Virus record (IMG/VR): IMGVR_UViG_3300031949_000027
Coordinates: 2,437-66,436 of that record
Reading direction: 5' to 3' (one strand)
Origin: a virus
Lineage: Duplodnaviria > Caudoviricetes
DNA: 64,000 nucleotides
Part shown: positions 8,623 through 24,897 of the stretch, piece by piece
Layout of the letters: the number at the start of each line of letters is the position of its first letter
How positions within the stretch are numbered: the stretch's first letter is position 1
Translations under genes and position numbers: made by a program
The notes under the pieces: generated by a model
What the model saw: the letters and a program-made list of their open reading frames with translations, nothing else
Told to the model about the DNA's origin: nothing
Database searches by the model: none

Positions 8623-10215
8623 ATGGATTTCGATTTACAACCAATACAATCAGACCTTTGGGATATTTACGAACACGGACCTGAAACCAAAATAGGATTT
8701 GGCGGACCGCGAGGAGGAACAAAAAGCCATAGTGCAGATGCTATGATGCTGATGAGAAGAATAAAATATCCCGGCACGAATGGATTGTTCATAATGAGAG
8801 TATATCAGGACATGATGGATATTCATATTAGACCTATGTTTGATGCTTACCCTGAACTGGAAGCCGGATTCACCAAACAGCCGGATATGATATTGAAGAT
8901 GAGCAACGGCAGTTACATTAGATTTTTATCAGGTGAGAATCTTGAATCATTTCAGAAAAGGAAAGGCAGAGGATTTGCAGATGTGATGATAGATCAGTCA
9001 GAACTATTTACAAAGGAAGAATTAGAATTTCTTTACACGATCAACAGATCAGTAAAACCCGGCATTACACCTAAAACTTTAATGTGTTTCAATCCCGGCA
9101 ACATTGGGCACGCATACCACAAGAGAGTATTTTACGATAAGATATATGAAGGTAATGAGAACCCCGAAGACTTTGCATACTTACAGGCGAAGGGATGGGA
9201 CAACGCATACTGGAGTATCAAAGAAATGGCACGATTCAAAGGACTGGAACCAAAAGAATTAAACGCCGAGCAAATACTTGAATTAGTTGAGGACTATCAT
9301 CAGCTCCCGGAGAAAGAACGATTCAACATCTTTATAAAAACAGATTACGGTAAAGTTCTTGACGGACAGCCAGAGAATAAACGGCGAGCAGAACTGTTCG
9401 GCGATATGGAAATTTTTGAAGGTATGTTCTTTGAAGACTTCCGTTATAGACATCACGTTATCAAGGATTACAAACTAAATTCATTGCGGGCAACAATGGG
9501 AGGACTGGATTATGGCAACACCACTGCATTAACGATATTGCAGAGAGATACCGAAGGGTCAATGATTGCAGCCGGAGAATGTTTCCTACCAAACCTAACA
9601 AACCCATCAGAAAGAGCAAACGAAATTACAGACTACTTGCTTGAGAAAGAACTTTATCATCTTGAAATCATATACGACACAGATATGGAAATCAGTCAGT
9701 TGAGTAATATCGGAGTTGACAAAACACCGATAGTAATATTCAGGGACATCTTCAAGCAGAGGATGGGAGATAAAGCCCCACGTATGAGAGTAGTCAATAA
9801 GAAATCACTTGATAAGAACAAACCTTATCGAACAGTAGTAAATGATGCGGTGAAAGAATACCTGCATATAAAAAGAATCTGTATCAAATGCGGTAAGGAA
9901 GTAAACAAGAAATTAAAAGAGTGTTCCCTTTGCAAATTACCACCGGCAGAACAAAGCAATTTATATGTATCAAGTGATTGCCATCAATTGATAAAGTTTT
10001 TCAGCGAGGCTATATTTGATCCAAATGATCCATCAGGCGGAGACTTTGAGCGAAATACAATGCCAAAGAAAGATCATCAATACGATAGTTTCAAATATGT
10101 ATTTATGGCATTGGTAACACCAAAGAAAAAACCAGAGGATAAAAGACCTAACTGGTTGAAGAAGATACAGCGAGAAGCACAGACAAATCAAAAACCAAAG
10201 TTTATGGGAGTATAA
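8623..10215 (+). CDS. terL: Terminase large subunit
   Basis: Walker A GGPRGGTKS, Walker B-like VMIDQSE, FNPGN coupling motif, nuclease GLDYG and DHQYDSFKY. Confidence 0.92.
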   Translation: MDFDLQPIQSDLWDIYEHGPETKIGFGGPRGGTKSHSADAMMLMRRIKYPGTNGLFIMRVYQDMMDIHIRPMFDAYPELEAGFTKQPDMILKMSNGSYIRFLSGENLESFQKRKGRGFADVMIDQSELFTKEELEFLYTINRSVKPGITPKTLMCFNPGNIGHAYHKRVFYDKIYEGNENPEDFAYLQAKGWDNAYWSIKEMARFKGLEPKELNAEQILELVEDYHQLPEKERFNIFIKTDYGKVLDGQPENKRRAELFGDMEIFEGMFFEDFRYRHHVIKDYKLNSLRATMGGLDYGNTTALTILQRDTEGSMIAAGECFLPNLTNPSERANEITDYLLEKELYHLEIIYDTDMEISQLSNIGVDKTPIVIFRDIFKQRMGDKAPRMRVVNKKSLDKNKPYRTVVNDAVKEYLHIKRICIKCGKEVNKKLKECSLCKLPPAEQSNLYVSSDCHQLIKFFSEAIFDPNDPSGGDFERNTMPKKDHQYDSFKYVFMALVTPKKKPEDKRPNWLKKIQREAQTNQKPKFMGV

Positions 10216-10221
10216 AAACAA

Positions 10222-12399
10222 ATGATAAAGCAAACTAACCGAGATTGGAATATTAGGGATGAACAAACAATCTATGAATGTATGAGGTTGTTTGAAAACA
10301 CATCAGCACAGTTCAACTCATTCTATGAAGAACAAACAGAACTATTTGATTTCACGGTAGCAAAGTTGCAATGGGAGAAAAAGATAAAAGCACAATTGGA
10401 CGCAGACGGCAGACCGGCATTTAGTTACAATCTCATCAGGACAATATTGAATGTAATATTCAGCATCGAGCGAGATAACAGAAAGAAGGGCAAAGCATCA
10501 CCGAGAACCGGAGGCGACACAGAACTTGCAATGACAATATCACAGGTCTTACAATACTATCTATACCGGGCAGGATTCAGCAAAGCACAGAAGCGAGTCT
10601 TTATGGATAAGATTGTAGCACGACTTGGAGTTTGGCATTTGGCTTGGAGATATAATGGAAGTGAAGATGAACTCGGTAGTCTGTTCATAGAATCAGTTGA
10701 CCCCAGAGGATTGGCTTGGGAACTGAACTATGACGACCCACTTTGGGAGAATAGTTCGTATGTTTTACGGAAGCACGAAAAGAGTGTTGAAGAAATAATC
10801 AACACCTATGCTTTACACGATAACGAATTGCGACAGGAAATAGAGAAGGAAGCAAAAATATTCTTTGAAGCAGATCCACAGCGAGGGAAATGGATAAGCA
10901 GAAGATTGAAAGCATTGTTCTCGGCAGTGTATGAGACGGCAACCGGATATAGCGGGAGGAACGATAACCTATTCCGAAACTACTTGCAGTGGTGGAACCC
11001 GGGAAATGGAAAGTTTGATATACTTGAACTGCACGAAAAGCGGATGGAGCGAAGATTAATAGTGAAGGATGCAAACAGGCAGAAATTGATAGACATCACA
11101 GAGCCATACCACTCAGAATACAAAGCACTTGAACTAAGACCATTTGATGGTTACGATTTCGACCCGGAGATCATCGGCAGAATAAAAGACAGATACGCAA
11201 TAGAAGGCGAAGCCGATATTGACTTAATGAACCGAAGATTTGTAACGGCAGTAATACCATCATTCTATCTGAAAGCAAATGAACAGCCTTACCCATTCGA
11301 CAGCAAATATTATGTTTACATTCCTGAATATTGCTATGACACACACGCAGACCCGATAAAACTGCAATCAGTAATTGACGACATCAAAGACCCTCAGCAG
11401 GACTTCAACAAAGCACGATCACTCATTCTTGAATTGTTAGCAAGATACAGTAACAAGGGTTGGATATTGGATGAGAACGCTATTGATGGATTGGAAGAAG
11501 ATTGGACGACCAACAGAATCACACCATACCGAAGGGTCAGAGCAGGATATATTTCAATGATAAAACCGGAAGAAGGACAGACGATCTCACCTGAACTAAT
11601 CAGGATGCCGGGAGAAACACAGCAGTTGATGAAAGTAATTACCAATGCGGATGATGAAGTAAGAGGAACAAAATCACCCGGAGTAACATCAGGCAGACAC
11701 TTTATTGCGAAAGAAGAACGACAGGCAAAGAGTTTCACTATGATCTTAGAGACAAGAGACAATGCGCAGAAAGCAGTTTATGAACTTGCACTTGATTTCA
11801 TTCAGCATTATGTAAAGACACAGGAAGTAATAAGAATCACCAGAGACATAATGCCGGGACTGGAAGAAGACAAGGAAATAGTATTGAACCAGAGAACATA
11901 CGGCAAGGATGAAAGCGGTATGCTTGAGGAAAGAGTAGTCAATGATATTGACGCATATAAATACGACATCGAAATAGCAGACGAACCATATTCAGCATCA
12001 GCACAGGAGGAGAGATACAGTAAGTTAGGCGACATTTTCAATGCAACAATAGCAGTTGACATTAAGAGAGCAGATGCAATGCTACCAATAATGGTAAGGG
12101 CAGCGGGAACACCGGAAGGAGAAAAGATACTTGAGGCTTGGAAAAAACTTGAGGAACCAACACCTCAGCAACAGCAACTACAAGAAATGATGACAAAGAT
12201 TCAGATGATAATGGCGAAGCTCGAAATAGAAGATAAGCAGGCAGAAGTAGAGGGAAAAGAACTTACCAACGTGAAGACGGCAGAAGAAATAAAAAAATTG
12301 CAAATTGAAAATGTTTTTTCTACATTAGCACCACAGAATAACGGAAACAACGGCAAACCAAAACCTAAAGACAAACAGAAAGAGGAGAAAGCAAAATGA
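10222..12399 (+). CDS. Portal protein, P22-like
   Basis: 725 aa immediately after terL; DGRPAFSYNLI..ERDNR, IKDPQQDFNK, coiled-coil C-terminus. Confidence 0.9.
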   Translation: MIKQTNRDWNIRDEQTIYECMRLFENTSAQFNSFYEEQTELFDFTVAKLQWEKKIKAQLDADGRPAFSYNLIRTILNVIFSIERDNRKKGKASPRTGGDTELAMTISQVLQYYLYRAGFSKAQKRVFMDKIVARLGVWHLAWRYNGSEDELGSLFIESVDPRGLAWELNYDDPLWENSSYVLRKHEKSVEEIINTYALHDNELRQEIEKEAKIFFEADPQRGKWISRRLKALFSAVYETATGYSGRNDNLFRNYLQWWNPGNGKFDILELHEKRMERRLIVKDANRQKLIDITEPYHSEYKALELRPFDGYDFDPEIIGRIKDRYAIEGEADIDLMNRRFVTAVIPSFYLKANEQPYPFDSKYYVYIPEYCYDTHADPIKLQSVIDDIKDPQQDFNKARSLILELLARYSNKGWILDENAIDGLEEDWTTNRITPYRRVRAGYISMIKPEEGQTISPELIRMPGETQQLMKVITNADDEVRGTKSPGVTSGRHFIAKEERQAKSFTMILETRDNAQKAVYELALDFIQHYVKTQEVIRITRDIMPGLEEDKEIVLNQRTYGKDESGMLEERVVNDIDAYKYDIEIADEPYSASAQEERYSKLGDIFNATIAVDIKRADAMLPIMVRAAGTPEGEKILEAWKKLEEPTPQQQQLQEMMTKIQMIMAKLEIEDKQAEVEGKELTNVKTAEEIKKLQIENVFSTLAPQNNGNNGKPKPKDKQKEEKAK
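11410..11484 (+). repeat. Copy 1 of a 75-bp direct repeat (portal codons 397-421); copy 2 at 12423-12497
   Basis: Manual alignment: 65/75 nt and 24/25 aa identical. Confidence 0.95.
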
Positions 12400-12527
12400 A
12401 CAGAATCCCAAAACTTACTATAAAAGCACGACCACTAATCCTTGAACTCTTGGCAAGATACAGCAACAAGGGTTGGATTCTTGATGAGAACGCTATTAAA
12501 AAATACAAGAAGAAGTATATCAAATAA
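12396..12527 (+). CDS. 43-aa microprotein carrying a portal-derived segment (absent from ORF track)
   Basis: MNRIPKLTIKARPLILELLARYSNKGWILDENAIKKYKKKYIK; GAGGAG RBS at 12382-87; ATGA coupling to the portal stop; synonymous-dominated divergence from portal. Confidence 0.8.
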   Translation: MNRIPKLTIKARPLILELLARYSNKGWILDENAIKKYKKKYIK

Positions 12528-12542
12528 AGTGAGAGTGGCAAT

Positions 12543-12770
12543 ATGAGTTTTCCAGAAATGATCTACCGAACAATAACCTTTTTATTTTCAGACCTATGGG
12601 TATATGTAGGACTGATACTTCTGATAATTACGATTAGGGGGGACATCACCATAGCAATGAAAGCAACCGGAGATTTTTTCAAAAGAGTATCGGCGAGACT
12701 ACAACAGAAAAAAATAGAAGATGCGAACCGGGAAAAGCTCAGACAGAAAGCGACACAATACAAACCTTAG
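12543..12770 (+). CDS. Small membrane protein
   Basis: Hydrophobic N-terminal helix, basic tail. Confidence 0.65.
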   Translation: MSFPEMIYRTITFLFSDLWVYVGLILLIITIRGDITIAMKATGDFFKRVSARLQQKKIEDANREKLRQKATQYKP

Positions 12771-13299: not shown

Positions 13300-13529
13300 T
13301 GGAAATAATAATGGGTCCTGCAACATTTATGGAACAATTCAATGATGTAAAAGAAGACAGGGAAAGGTCTATTGCATTTATTAAAGTAAGGAAAGACAGA
13401 GTATTTATAAACACTGAGATATACACTGGCAATGAAAATATAGATACTCTCGATTATTACACTAACGATTTAGCACTAATGCTTCACCTATTAAAAACCA
13501 AACATAAAATAAAGGAACAGGAACTATGA
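13296..13529 (+). CDS. Hypothetical protein
   Basis: 77-aa ORF with overlapping start and stop; start may be ATG 13299. Confidence 0.6.
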   Translation: MMEIIMGPATFMEQFNDVKEDRERSIAFIKVRKDRVFINTEIYTGNENIDTLDYYTNDLALMLHLLKTKHKIKEQEL

Positions 13530-13762
13530 AAGAATTAGCAGAACTCCTCATCCAAAAACTTGTTGACAAACCAAAGGAAGTCCGCATCGAGGAGAAGGTA
13601 GAAGAAGGAACAATCAAATTAAAAGTTCACGTAGCCACAGACGACATAGGCAAGATCGTAGGGAAGAAAGGACAGAACATAGGCGCATTGCGAACCCTCC
13701 TGAAAGCAATCGGAGCCAAGGAAAGTAAAAAGAGAGTTTTATTAGATATAGATGAGTATTGA
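13526..13762 (+). CDS. khpA: KH-domain RNA-binding protein, KhpA/YlqC (UPF0109) family
   Basis: MKELAELLIQKLVDKPKEV...DDIGKIVGKKGQNIGALRTLL; 78 aa; GxxG loop. Confidence 0.9.
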   Translation: MKELAELLIQKLVDKPKEVRIEEKVEEGTIKLKVHVATDDIGKIVGKKGQNIGALRTLLKAIGAKESKKRVLLDIDEY

Positions 13763-16603: not shown

Positions 16604-17556
16604 AATATTTATTAATTACAACCACAGGGAACAGAAACACAGGGGACGAACTAATAAGAATCGGAGTTCAGAATCTTGTAAAAATGATAGACCCGGAAGC
16701 AGAGTTTGAATTACTTGATAAAGAGACTGATAGTTGGCAGCCAAGAGAATTTAATAAAGCAATATTATGCGGTATGCCGTTATTCTGGAACAATGAAGTA
16801 AGCACATCACAGTCAATATCTTGGTGGGGAATGATGATGAAAGGATGGATATCAGAAAGGAAAAAAGATTTTTTAATTTTAGGTGTTGGAAATGTTATTG
16901 GCGAATACATAGAAGACCTTTTCACTTATGCTACGGCAGTTCAGCAGGCAATAGACAGAGCTTTTGCAGTAACAGTAAGAAATTTTGTTGGAAATCACCC
17001 TGACCTTATAGACAGCGTTTGCCCCTCTGTATTTGCAGTAGAGGAAATAAAAGAACCAAAATATAAACTATGTAACTTTATGCCGGATGGAGCTCACGAC
17101 AGTCATTTTAATCCTAAAGAAGCAAGGATATGGCAGAATATACTTCCTGAAATAAACAGGTATTGTTTAGCAAACGATTATTATTTCATTGTTCATTCAC
17201 ATAAAGATTATAGAATAGAGAAGCCCGAAGAATTGGGATGGAATGAGGACCGGATAATTTATTTTGACACAGCAGAGGAATACCTTAATATTTATGCACA
17301 GGTTAAATGCTATTTTGGAAACAGGATGCATGGATCTGTAATAACAATGGCATTAGGAAGACCTTCATTAGCGATAGGCTATGAAAGCAGGGGATTGATG
17401 GTAAGGAAAGTTGGCGGGGAAGTAATGCTACCCTCAGAGGTTAAAATCTCCGATATAGTCAAATTAGAGAACAATAGTCCCCCCGTAATCCCGGAAATAA
17501 TAATAAATGAAGAAATAAAACTGCTTACTTTATTAAGAGAATTTATAGAGGCTTAA
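16600..17556 (+). CDS. Polysaccharide pyruvyl transferase family protein
   Basis: GNRNTGDELI, VTVRN, GNRMHGSVITMALGRP..IGYESR; ATG 16600 overlaps the upstream TGA. Confidence 0.75.
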   Translation: MKYLLITTTGNRNTGDELIRIGVQNLVKMIDPEAEFELLDKETDSWQPREFNKAILCGMPLFWNNEVSTSQSISWWGMMMKGWISERKKDFLILGVGNVIGEYIEDLFTYATAVQQAIDRAFAVTVRNFVGNHPDLIDSVCPSVFAVEEIKEPKYKLCNFMPDGAHDSHFNPKEARIWQNILPEINRYCLANDYYFIVHSHKDYRIEKPEELGWNEDRIIYFDTAEEYLNIYAQVKCYFGNRMHGSVITMALGRPSLAIGYESRGLMVRKVGGEVMLPSEVKISDIVKLENNSPPVIPEIIINEEIKLLTLLREFIEA

Positions 17557-21398: not shown

Positions 21399-21731
21399 AT
21401 GAAAGAACAAAGTTTAAGAGAAAAAGTTTCAGGGAAATTAAATCTTGCAGGGGATATTAAAGAAGCAAAAATTCAGACATCAATCGGAGATGTGAAAAAG
21501 GTTGATGGAAAAATATCAGCAAGATTTGAAATTTCCGGATTACCAAGCAAAAGAAAGGACGGTAGTTATTCTGACTCTTACAAAACCATTCCTAAGATAT
21601 TTGATACGATAGAAAAATTCAGCGAATATGCAACGATGTTTTTTAATGCAAGCGATGATGAAATAATAAAGATGTGTCAGGCATCTTATTTATCTAATTC
21701 CGGACCAGTAGCAAACAAAATGGCACACTAA
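21399..21731 (+). CDS. Small pre-capsid protein with SLREKVSGKLNL motif
   Basis: 110-aa ORF with AGGGA RBS. Confidence 0.75.
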   Translation: MKEQSLREKVSGKLNLAGDIKEAKIQTSIGDVKKVDGKISARFEISGLPSKRKDGSYSDSYKTIPKIFDTIEKFSEYATMFFNASDDEIIKMCQASYLSNSGPVANKMAH

Positions 21732-21733
21732 TA

Positions 21734-22177
21734 ATGGGAACATTAAATAACGAATTAACAATGTATAGGAGTGCATCTAAAATGACAAATGATGAGGAAG
21801 AAAAGAGACGGCAAAAAATAAGAAATAATGTTGCTAAGAAATTAAACTTGGGCAATAAGCCAAAAAAGGAAACACCCCCCGAATGGACGAAACAAAAACC
21901 CGGTTCGGTTGCAAATGTTAATTCATCAGATCAGGTAAGAACGTCAAAACAGATTACAGATATTGATAAGAAAAACAGACCACAGGGAGACAATACTAAG
22001 CCAATACTTACTGAAAAAACAAAAACCACTCCGAGTAATAAAACAAATGTTTTAGGCAACATTCCTTTAACCGGCAGAAAAATAGTTGGGAATGTTACTG
22101 AAATGATGAGCGAAAAAGATTTAGAAGTAAAAAATAAAAAATACAAATCACAAACAAACACAATATTAGGGAGATAG
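21734..22177 (+). CDS. Basic low-complexity protein sharing the capsid N-terminus and the KLNL motif
   Basis: MGTLNNELTMYRSA versus capsid MGTLNKDVAMYRTA; IRNNVAKKLNL. Confidence 0.75.
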   Translation: MGTLNNELTMYRSASKMTNDEEEKRRQKIRNNVAKKLNLGNKPKKETPPEWTKQKPGSVANVNSSDQVRTSKQITDIDKKNRPQGDNTKPILTEKTKTTPSNKTNVLGNIPLTGRKIVGNVTEMMSEKDLEVKNKKYKSQTNTILGR

Positions 22178-23567: not shown

Positions 23568-23598
23568 ATAAAAATTTATTAGGAGTTTATAAAATATT

Positions 23599-24897
23599 AT
23601 GGGAACATTAAACAAAGACGTTGCAATGTATAGAACTGCATTGCAGAAAGACTTCACAAACAGTGAGTGGTTTCAGCCACCAGTTTGGGGAGACTTAATG
23701 GGGTATCCCGGCGGAAAAGATCAATACGGCTATCCAACTTCAGTTCCTTATGGTGCGTTAAGAAATAAAACAGTTGCTCCATCAGGCAAACCAATAGAAG
23801 TTCTCTTAGATTGGTTTCATGATGGTGGTTGGGATATGGATATTCCGGTTCTGTTACCACTTGTTGACCCTCCGAAAAGAGGAGATCAACAGGCTAAAGG
23901 TTTCGGTGAAGATCGTAGATGGGTTTACAGAAAAGGATATTTCACACAAATCAGAAAACCCGTTAAAGTTAGCGATGGTTCATACGGTGATATGGCTATA
24001 AATCCACAACTGGTAAAACGATTGATGAGCAGAGTAAAAATTGATCTTCAGAAATTCAATACAGATTTAATGCTACACTCTCCATATCAGGCTGTTTACA
24101 GAGGATATGATGATAACCTGATAGAGACCCCTGAGCTTGCCGGTATATGCACTCAGAAATCTCATCCTAATTTCTTCATCGAGGGCTATGGAAAGGTGGC
24201 ATATAATTCAAACAACACCACTTATGAAACTGCTATTGCAGCATTGTTAAACAATCTCGGTGCAGGTGATGAATTCACAATGAAGACTCTCCGTAAAATG
24301 CAGATGGCAGCTAACGAACTTACAATCGGTTATCCGACAGTAACAGTTATGGGACATCCGATAAAAGGAGTTGTGATATTGAATGACAGACAATTTGCTC
24401 AACTTGCAGAAGACCCACTGTTTGAAAGAGTTCATATCGCACTTATTACTGCCGAAGGAAATAAAGCAGCAATGTTCACAGGTGCTTATGAAGCACACTT
24501 AGTAGAAGGCACGTTGATTCTTATTGATGTTAATAATCCGGGCATCTGGTTAGATGGTGATACAGGTTATGACGCAACAAGAGGAATTATCAATTATGGT
24601 AATCCGAATCCGATAAAGAATCCTATTCATAACTCGGACATCAAGGTAGCCATTTATCTCGGTGCATCTGCTCTGCTTGCTGCAAATAACAAACAGTTGA
24701 GAATGGAAGATGAGATTGATGATTTCGGTAACATCAAGGAAACAGCATCTATTACAGCACGTGGATTTACAAGAGCAGACAACAGCAATACCGACAGGAA
24801 GGTAGCAGCAGCAGACTTCAAGCCAAACTCAAGTTCACTTGTTGTAGCAACATACACACCGCAGAACATAGCATGGCAGACCGGCACAAGTTCATAA
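23599..24897 (+). CDS. Major capsid protein
   Basis: 432 aa after the scaffold; AGGAG RBS; GDQQAKGFGED...TQIRKPV and EDEIDDFGN patterns resemble N4-gp56/DUF4043-type coat proteins. Confidence 0.8.
   Translation: MGTLNKDVAMYRTALQKDFTNSEWFQPPVWGDLMGYPGGKDQYGYPTSVPYGALRNKTVAPSGKPIEVLLDWFHDGGWDMDIPVLLPLVDPPKRGDQQAKGFGEDRRWVYRKGYFTQIRKPVKVSDGSYGDMAINPQLVKRLMSRVKIDLQKFNTDLMLHSPYQAVYRGYDDNLIETPELAGICTQKSHPNFFIEGYGKVAYNSNNTTYETAIAALLNNLGAGDEFTMKTLRKMQMAANELTIGYPTVTVMGHPIKGVVILNDRQFAQLAEDPLFERVHIALITAEGNKAAMFTGAYEAHLVEGTLILIDVNNPGIWLDGDTGYDATRGIINYGNPNPIKNPIHNSDIKVAIYLGASALLAANNKQLRMEDEIDDFGNIKETASITARGFTRADNSNTDRKVAAADFKPNSSSLVVATYTPQNIAWQTGTSS

Follow-up and report, generated by a model that had tools for sequence, protein, structure and literature searches.

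Why does a 43-codon open reading frame (ORF) directly behind the portal gene of an uncultured tailed virus repeat 25 residues of that same portal protein? The locus lies in a window of 64,000 nucleotides (nt), bases 2437-66436 of the 66,436-nt uncultured virus record IMGVR_UViG_3300031949_000027, and an initial annotation had read the small ORF, hereafter the mini-ORF, as a portal mimic under protein-level selection. On the evidence assembled below we favour, at about even chances, a different reading: the mini-ORF would be a young chimera born of recombination, which is probably translated and has no demonstrated selected function. The argument turns on the following features.

10222-12399, + strand: portal gene, 725 amino acids (aa), P22-type (PF16510, E = 5.9e-63; AlphaFold predicted local distance difference test score, pLDDT, 85; top Foldseek matches the P22, Pan3 and Sf6 portals)
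11410-11484, + strand: resident portal segment K397-I421, covering the first stem helix in its C-terminal half and 11 residues at the start of the clip
12382-12387, + strand: Shine-Dalgarno (SD)-like GAGGAG, 8 nt before the mini-ORF ATG and within the last portal codons
12396-12527, + strand: 43-codon mini-ORF, which overlaps the portal stop at its start (ATGA) and ends 15 nt short of the next gene
12396-12422, + strand: first nine codons of the mini-ORF; taken together with their leader (from 12379), they are similar to the leader and 5' end of the small membrane gene found downstream in relatives
12423-12497, + strand: 75-nt copy of the portal segment, with 10 mismatches (9 synonymous plus S400P)
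12498-12542, + strand: Lys-rich nine-codon tail, TAA stop and 15-nt spacer, with no significant similarity to the portal 3' ends or leaders of relatives
12543-12770, + strand: conserved 75-aa small membrane-type gene, which in relatives stands directly after the portal gene or after variable cargo

The two portal segments form a direct repeat (11410-11484 versus 12423-12497) in which 65 of 75 nt are the same (87% identity), each copy being in frame with its own ORF. At the protein level, mini-ORF residues 10-34 repeat portal K397-I421 with 24 of 25 residues identical. The ten mismatches are T/C, C/A, T/C, T/C, G/C, A/G, T/C, A/T, T/C and G/T; nine of them fall in seven synonymous codons, and the tenth changes Ser400 to Pro. 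In all of this the initial annotation was accurate, as it was in assigning to the 43-aa ORF a GAGGAG ribosome-binding site and ATGA coupling to the portal stop, and its coordinates were confirmed throughout. Similarity ends sharply on both sides of the repeat, where the flanks fall to chance identity. The mini-ORF is homologous to the portal over these 25 residues only and lacks the full portal fold, having no wing, crown, barrel or second stem helix. An extension of the homology into the Lys-rich tail, as in the 32-aa alignments returned by tblastn, was rejected as an artefact of Lys/Glu scoring.

The form of the repeat bears on two trivial or non-coding explanations. It is very improbable that the insert is a metagenome assembly artefact, in which a fragment of a strain variant was stitched into the sequence. 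The record is a single metagenomic contig, which leaves room for such an error; however, the longest exact word common to both copies is 15 nt, so confusion in a k-mer graph is implausible, and the insert, with its unique flanks, forms a clean ORF fitted between two genes. Least probable of all is an element acting at the level of DNA or RNA, whether a structured RNA, a cassette for gene conversion of the portal or the template and variable repeats of a diversity-generating retroelement (DGR). Systems of this sort do draw on diverged direct repeats of coding sequence, but only one residue would be exchanged here, and the DGR repeat pair was rejected by the mismatch spectrum, which is not confined to adenines. 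Moreover, direct repeats on one strand offer no antisense pairing, and the RNA shows no structure beyond that of shuffled sequences (z-score -0.06). Rfam gave no credible match, with two sub-threshold matches to eukaryotic RNA families elsewhere in the region.

Apart from this repeat, the 64-kb window contains just one other internal DNA repeat. The second pairs 21731-21776 with 23596-23641 (46 nt, 80% identity), and the 147-aa gene at 21734 opens with a 14-residue copy (9 identical) of the N-terminus of the major capsid protein. In the closest relative, the homolog (146 aa, L030:9597-10037) is without the capsid-like N-terminus. Because this second short copy is missing from the homolog in L030, copying of pieces of structural genes recurs in the lineage.

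The initial annotation had argued from the substitutions that neutral decay would not give such a pattern, and this holds if the copy arose and diverged within this genome. In simulations of neutral decay in situ, ten differences with at most one residue change were obtained with P = 0.0003-0.002, on which basis that scenario was rejected. Capture from a relative, however, fits the pattern equally well. When 16 distinct portals were compared over the same 75 nt, pairs at 8-16 nt differences showed 0-3 residue changes; in the closest relative, whose portal P0002 is 79% identical overall, the 25 residues are unchanged although 16 nt differ, every one of them synonymously. In this comparison of sequences, the pair of resident and mini copies (10 nt, one residue) is an ordinary portal-portal pair. 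Since genuine portal pairs show the same pattern, a fragment captured from a related phage would arrive with its 9:1 ratio already in place; and because selection at the level of the portal acts on the segment, the ratio of nonsynonymous to synonymous substitution rates between the paralogs is confounded. The further claim of protein-level selection on the peptide is thus not established. Ser400 is invariant in all 16 portals, and Pro is found only in the mini copy. Such a Pro400 is what would be expected as the first change in a fragment freed from portal constraint, and it is compatible too with a helix that starts at the Pro. These comparisons carry a methodological warning: a difference between paralogs that is dominated by synonymous changes does not equal selection on the copy if the copy may derive from a diverged homolog.

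Where could a captured fragment have landed? The junction between the portal gene and the small membrane gene is empty in six related loci (L003, L005, L018, L030, L038 and L041), and the same slot holds five other, unrelated cargo sets elsewhere among the relatives.

L001:5105-5305: 66-aa ORF (phrog_774)
L002:5816-6091: 91-aa ORF, no family
L004:6170-6535: 121-aa ORF, no family
L039:5174-5512: 112-aa ORF, no family
L037:2411-2825: 93-aa and 42-aa ORFs, no family

This junction is a hypervariable recombination hot spot, and it has the look of a moron-type hot spot of small accessory ORFs. The sequence that precedes the portal piece in the mini-ORF was then aligned with the starts of the next gene in relatives. 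Ranked against 151 unrelated gene starts, the alignments of the leader and first nine codons (12379-12425) score within the top 0.7% for L001 and L018 and within the top 2% for L039 and L041. This likeness suggests that the start of the next gene may have been duplicated and then fused in frame to the portal piece. Because a duplicated start would have brought both the ribosome-binding site and the coupled ATG, these signals can be explained without selection.

Based on these findings, we propose a plausible mechanism for the origin of the mini-ORF. Non-allelic (illegitimate) recombination in the hypervariable slot that separates the portal gene from the conserved gene after it would have made a chimeric gene. 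In it, 75 nt of a P22-type portal gene, taken from where that gene is best conserved, would have been fused in frame downstream of a duplicated leader. That leader would have brought with it the first ~9 codons of the downstream small membrane gene. As we reconstruct the donor and the order of events, the piece most likely came from a closely related, co-infecting phage with a portal gene that had diverged chiefly at synonymous positions. The mini-ORF would thereby have acquired a functional ribosome-binding site along with a start that is coupled to the portal stop, and the scarcity of residue changes would be a legacy of purifying selection on the full-length portal of the donor, not something earned by the peptide. 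We infer that a selected function is lacking. Consistent with such an origin, the copy is truncated and has abrupt boundaries, the junction varies among relatives and the copy is absent from them.

The mini-ORF is in several ways reminiscent of the gene remnants and chimeric ORFs left at mosaic junctions by recombination between diverged phages (e.g., PMC3945230). It likewise holds a truncated, sharply bounded copy of the essential gene next to it, lies at a junction of variable cargo in a mosaic genome and is absent from kin. It differs from such remnants in being in frame and intact, with a strong ribosome-binding site and a coupled start, and it may already be expressed. As for the P22-type portal family (PF16510), 24 of the 25 residues agree with the stem/clip segment of the resident portal, but a 43-residue product with no match in Pfam, or in PHROG, is a fragment and not a member, as the 725-aa portal is.

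The expression signals were evaluated against those of the whole window. SD-type motifs precede 60% of the gene starts in the window, compared with a background of 15-18%, and the strongest SD class is found at 22% of gene starts versus 2% of other ATGs. In addition, a peak of G lies at -12 to -8 before the gene starts. Given this peak and the SD enrichment, the GAGGAG of the mini-ORF stands at the position of real ribosome-binding sites. The ATG of the mini-ORF (12396-12398) overlaps the portal TGA (12397-12399). Translation of the mini-ORF is likely, judging from these signals, and the peptide would probably be made late in infection, together with the portal. A clear SD enrichment at the gene starts of this phage is unusual for genomes associated with Bacteroidota; among the contigs with related portals, L032-L036 were binned in metagenome-assembled genomes of Bacteroidota (Sphingobacteriaceae, Bacteroidales), with one in a Pacearchaeota bin.

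The same overlap raises another, highly improbable reading, namely that the mini-ORF is entered by -1 ribosomal slippage. If tRNA-Lys slipped in the P site on A_AAA, immediately ahead of the TGA (12393-12399), translation would run on into ATG-AAC, and some portal subunits would gain a 43-residue tail in which the stem/clip piece occurs a second time. Relative to the portal, the mini-ORF does occupy the -1 frame, and A AAA TGA is there in the sequence. The upstream GAGGAG might also act as a stimulator; dnaX and prfB are precedents for SD-like stimulators of frameshifting placed upstream. Nevertheless, the site lacks a canonical X XXY YYZ heptamer, no structure is seen downstream of it (the z-score given above), ordinary ATGA coupling explains the arrangement fully, and none of the relatives has it.

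On the opposite strand, a 58-codon antisense ORF (12365-12541, - strand) and a promoter-like site (12541-12514, 10/12 matches) overlap the mini-ORF. Both were judged spurious, the genome being coded almost wholly on the + strand. The portal's own copy of the segment has a comparable antisense ORF (11394-11762), and these antisense ORFs are most likely a by-product of an A-rich coding strand.

Relatives, second copies and donors were sought in several collections. The core motif was scanned by a degenerate-codon pattern in IMG/VR, JGI metagenomes and GTDB genomes, further loci were fetched by portal similarity, the contigs of the closest portals were looked up, and the Logan/ENA collections were included. 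Each of more than 20 distinct related portal loci has the motif once, in the portal itself, and even when only 10-11 identities out of 25 were required, no further copy came up. Among 5.8 billion proteins, the sole homolog of 23-76 residues was the mini-ORF itself; GenBank phages gave no match by blastn or tblastn, and the ESM Atlas gave no usable match. A 103-aa "portal fragment" protein, P0049, proved not to be an analogue, since its C-terminal end is non-portal; it has the look of a truncated or chimeric gene prediction, and no gene is recorded for it. The initial annotation had held that relatives lacking the ORF would refute its proposal, and they do lack it (0 of >20 loci). This absence counts only weakly and is not decisive, because the best portal in the whole collection is just 79% identical to the resident one.

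Several observations weigh against the recombinational origin that we favour. Both boundaries of the repeat fall exactly at codon boundaries. The mini-ORF is intact, with no sign of decay (no stops, frameshifts or loss of the start), and it retains an SD motif and a coupled start; that SD motif is among the strongest in the window, at ideal spacing, and the ORF fits the tight, coupled packing of genes in the operon. The likeness of the 5' flank to the next gene is moderately significant, which makes it suggestive, not conclusive. The 45 nt at the 3' side matched neither the portal 3' ends nor the next-gene leaders of relatives (rank fractions 0.05-0.9), and a derivation of the tail from either was not supported. 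As to the donor, the degenerate-codon scans, the 5.8-billion-protein search and four contig look-ups brought up no portal that matches the mini copy better than the resident portal does: the nearest known DNA is the resident portal gene (10 differences), and the next best portals differ at 14-15 positions. The mini copy and the resident portal also share the lineage-specific states Ser14, Ile19 and Leu20. Because the resident gene is nearest and shares these residues, the donor would be the resident lineage itself or an unsampled close relative. Duplication within its own lineage is possible, and it would imply real purifying selection. Within the portal, sliding-window identities showed no sharp switch, and thus no recombination breakpoint, at the copied segment.

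The principal rival is that the mini-ORF encodes a functional microprotein which mimics the portal stem/clip, is coupled to the portal gene, arose by copying in the lineage and has been kept by purifying selection. We regard this as a serious contender, though less probable than a recombination-born chimera. The rejection of neutrality for a copy arising in situ (P as above), the resident portal as the nearest known DNA and the three shared residue states favour it, as do the intact ORF, the strong SD and the ATGA overlap. The slot itself holds accessory genes in relatives. For such a mimic, the place of the copied segment in the portal structure is of particular relevance.

The portal was modeled with AlphaFold from an alignment of 122 sequences, which was obtained by a profile search of 1.8 billion representative proteins. 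The model reached a pLDDT of 85.4 and a predicted template modelling score of 0.81, and its best fold matches are those listed with the gene above; a first model from a 13-sequence alignment was unusable (pLDDT 42) and was replaced. Solved structures retrieved by sequence search were too distant for direct residue mapping. The order of elements in the model is a helix (384-410), a region of short strands and helices (411-456), a helix (457-474), a loop and a long kinked helix (491-530). In known portals, the corresponding order is stem helix, clip, stem helix, tunnel loop and long helix (PMC6702177). Since the two orders match, K397-I421 comprises the C-terminal half of the first stem helix and the first 11 residues of the clip. 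This placement, together with the Foldseek matches, supports the earlier statement that the segment is the stem helix leading into the clip. The portal stem is a ring of 24 helices and the clip strands make contacts between subunits, while the clip is also the site of the adaptor and, citing work on T4, a region of contact with the terminase (PMC6702177). In 13 portals, 19 of the 25 positions of K397-I421 are invariant, and sliding-window identities along the portal peak over residues 339-500, so that the copied segment lies within the best conserved part.

A mimic drawn from this region would place an amphipathic helix and the first clip strand on the docking surface of neighbouring subunits, or of the terminase, the adaptor or a host portal sensor such as Avs4. 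It may cap unassembled portal monomers and so time the assembly of the ring, act as a competitor or serve as an immune decoy. That the copied piece is the best conserved one, in a stem/clip region that contacts neighbouring subunits, adaptor and terminase (PMC6702177), is in keeping with such roles, and a Pro at the first turn would suit a shortened helix that begins there. The mini-ORF would in this case be a small protein (43 aa, 25 of them copied) made essentially of the interaction surface of a larger oligomer.

Small proteins of this kind are known from eukaryotes, where microProteins (miPs) such as the Id and LITTLE ZIPPER proteins are tiny, dominant-negative copies of an oligomer interaction surface. 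The mini-ORF resembles them in encoding little beyond a copy of such a surface, for which, by analogy, it might be expected to compete. If the peptide is a mimic, its likeliest mechanism would be to compete for the surface of the portal stem/clip at which subunits contact one another or partners bind. It differs from microProteins in covering only half a helix and one strand. Further points count against the mimic. The ORF is a singleton, with no evidence of conservation among the sampled relatives, and its substitution pattern is explained equally well by capture from a relative. Moreover, 25 residues, with half of the helix and the remainder of the clip missing, would present a small surface to a sensor of the whole fold, and the identical sequence in the phage's own portal makes the exclusion of related phages, a role that the initial annotation had proposed, hard to picture. 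The young chimera remains our preferred reading.

The wider setting of the locus is that of a mosaic genome. The window has a G+C content of 36.6% and nearly all coding on the + strand, and between the terminase gene at 8623 and position 17556 the gaps elsewhere are all ≤23 nt. Upstream of the portal gene lies the following ORF.

8623-10215: ORF, large terminase (TerL)

TerL is 71% identical to its counterparts in L001 and L004 and 22% identical to that of L030 (L030:771-2219), yet L030 is the phage with the closest portal (79%); TerL has been swapped among close portal relatives. In the portal itself, the N-terminal part (residues 1-396) is nearest to L030 (84% identity), and the genes downstream are nearest to those of L018. 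A small KH-domain protein (KhpA-type, PF13083) is encoded at 13526-13762 in the window and at L030:5211-5447, L039:6630-6866 and L041:6135-6371. Several relatives keep this gene a few positions past the portal, which makes it a stable part of the late region of the phage group.

What the mini-ORF means for phage biology depends on which reading holds. As a fresh product of recombination, it would offer a clean snapshot of gene birth in a phage, in which part of an essential gene has come under a start signal taken from elsewhere and is probably translated already. If functional, it would be a naturally occurring microprotein with which a phage mimics its own virion assembly hub, and it would give an easy way to manipulate portal oligomerisation, motor docking or portal-sensing immunity.

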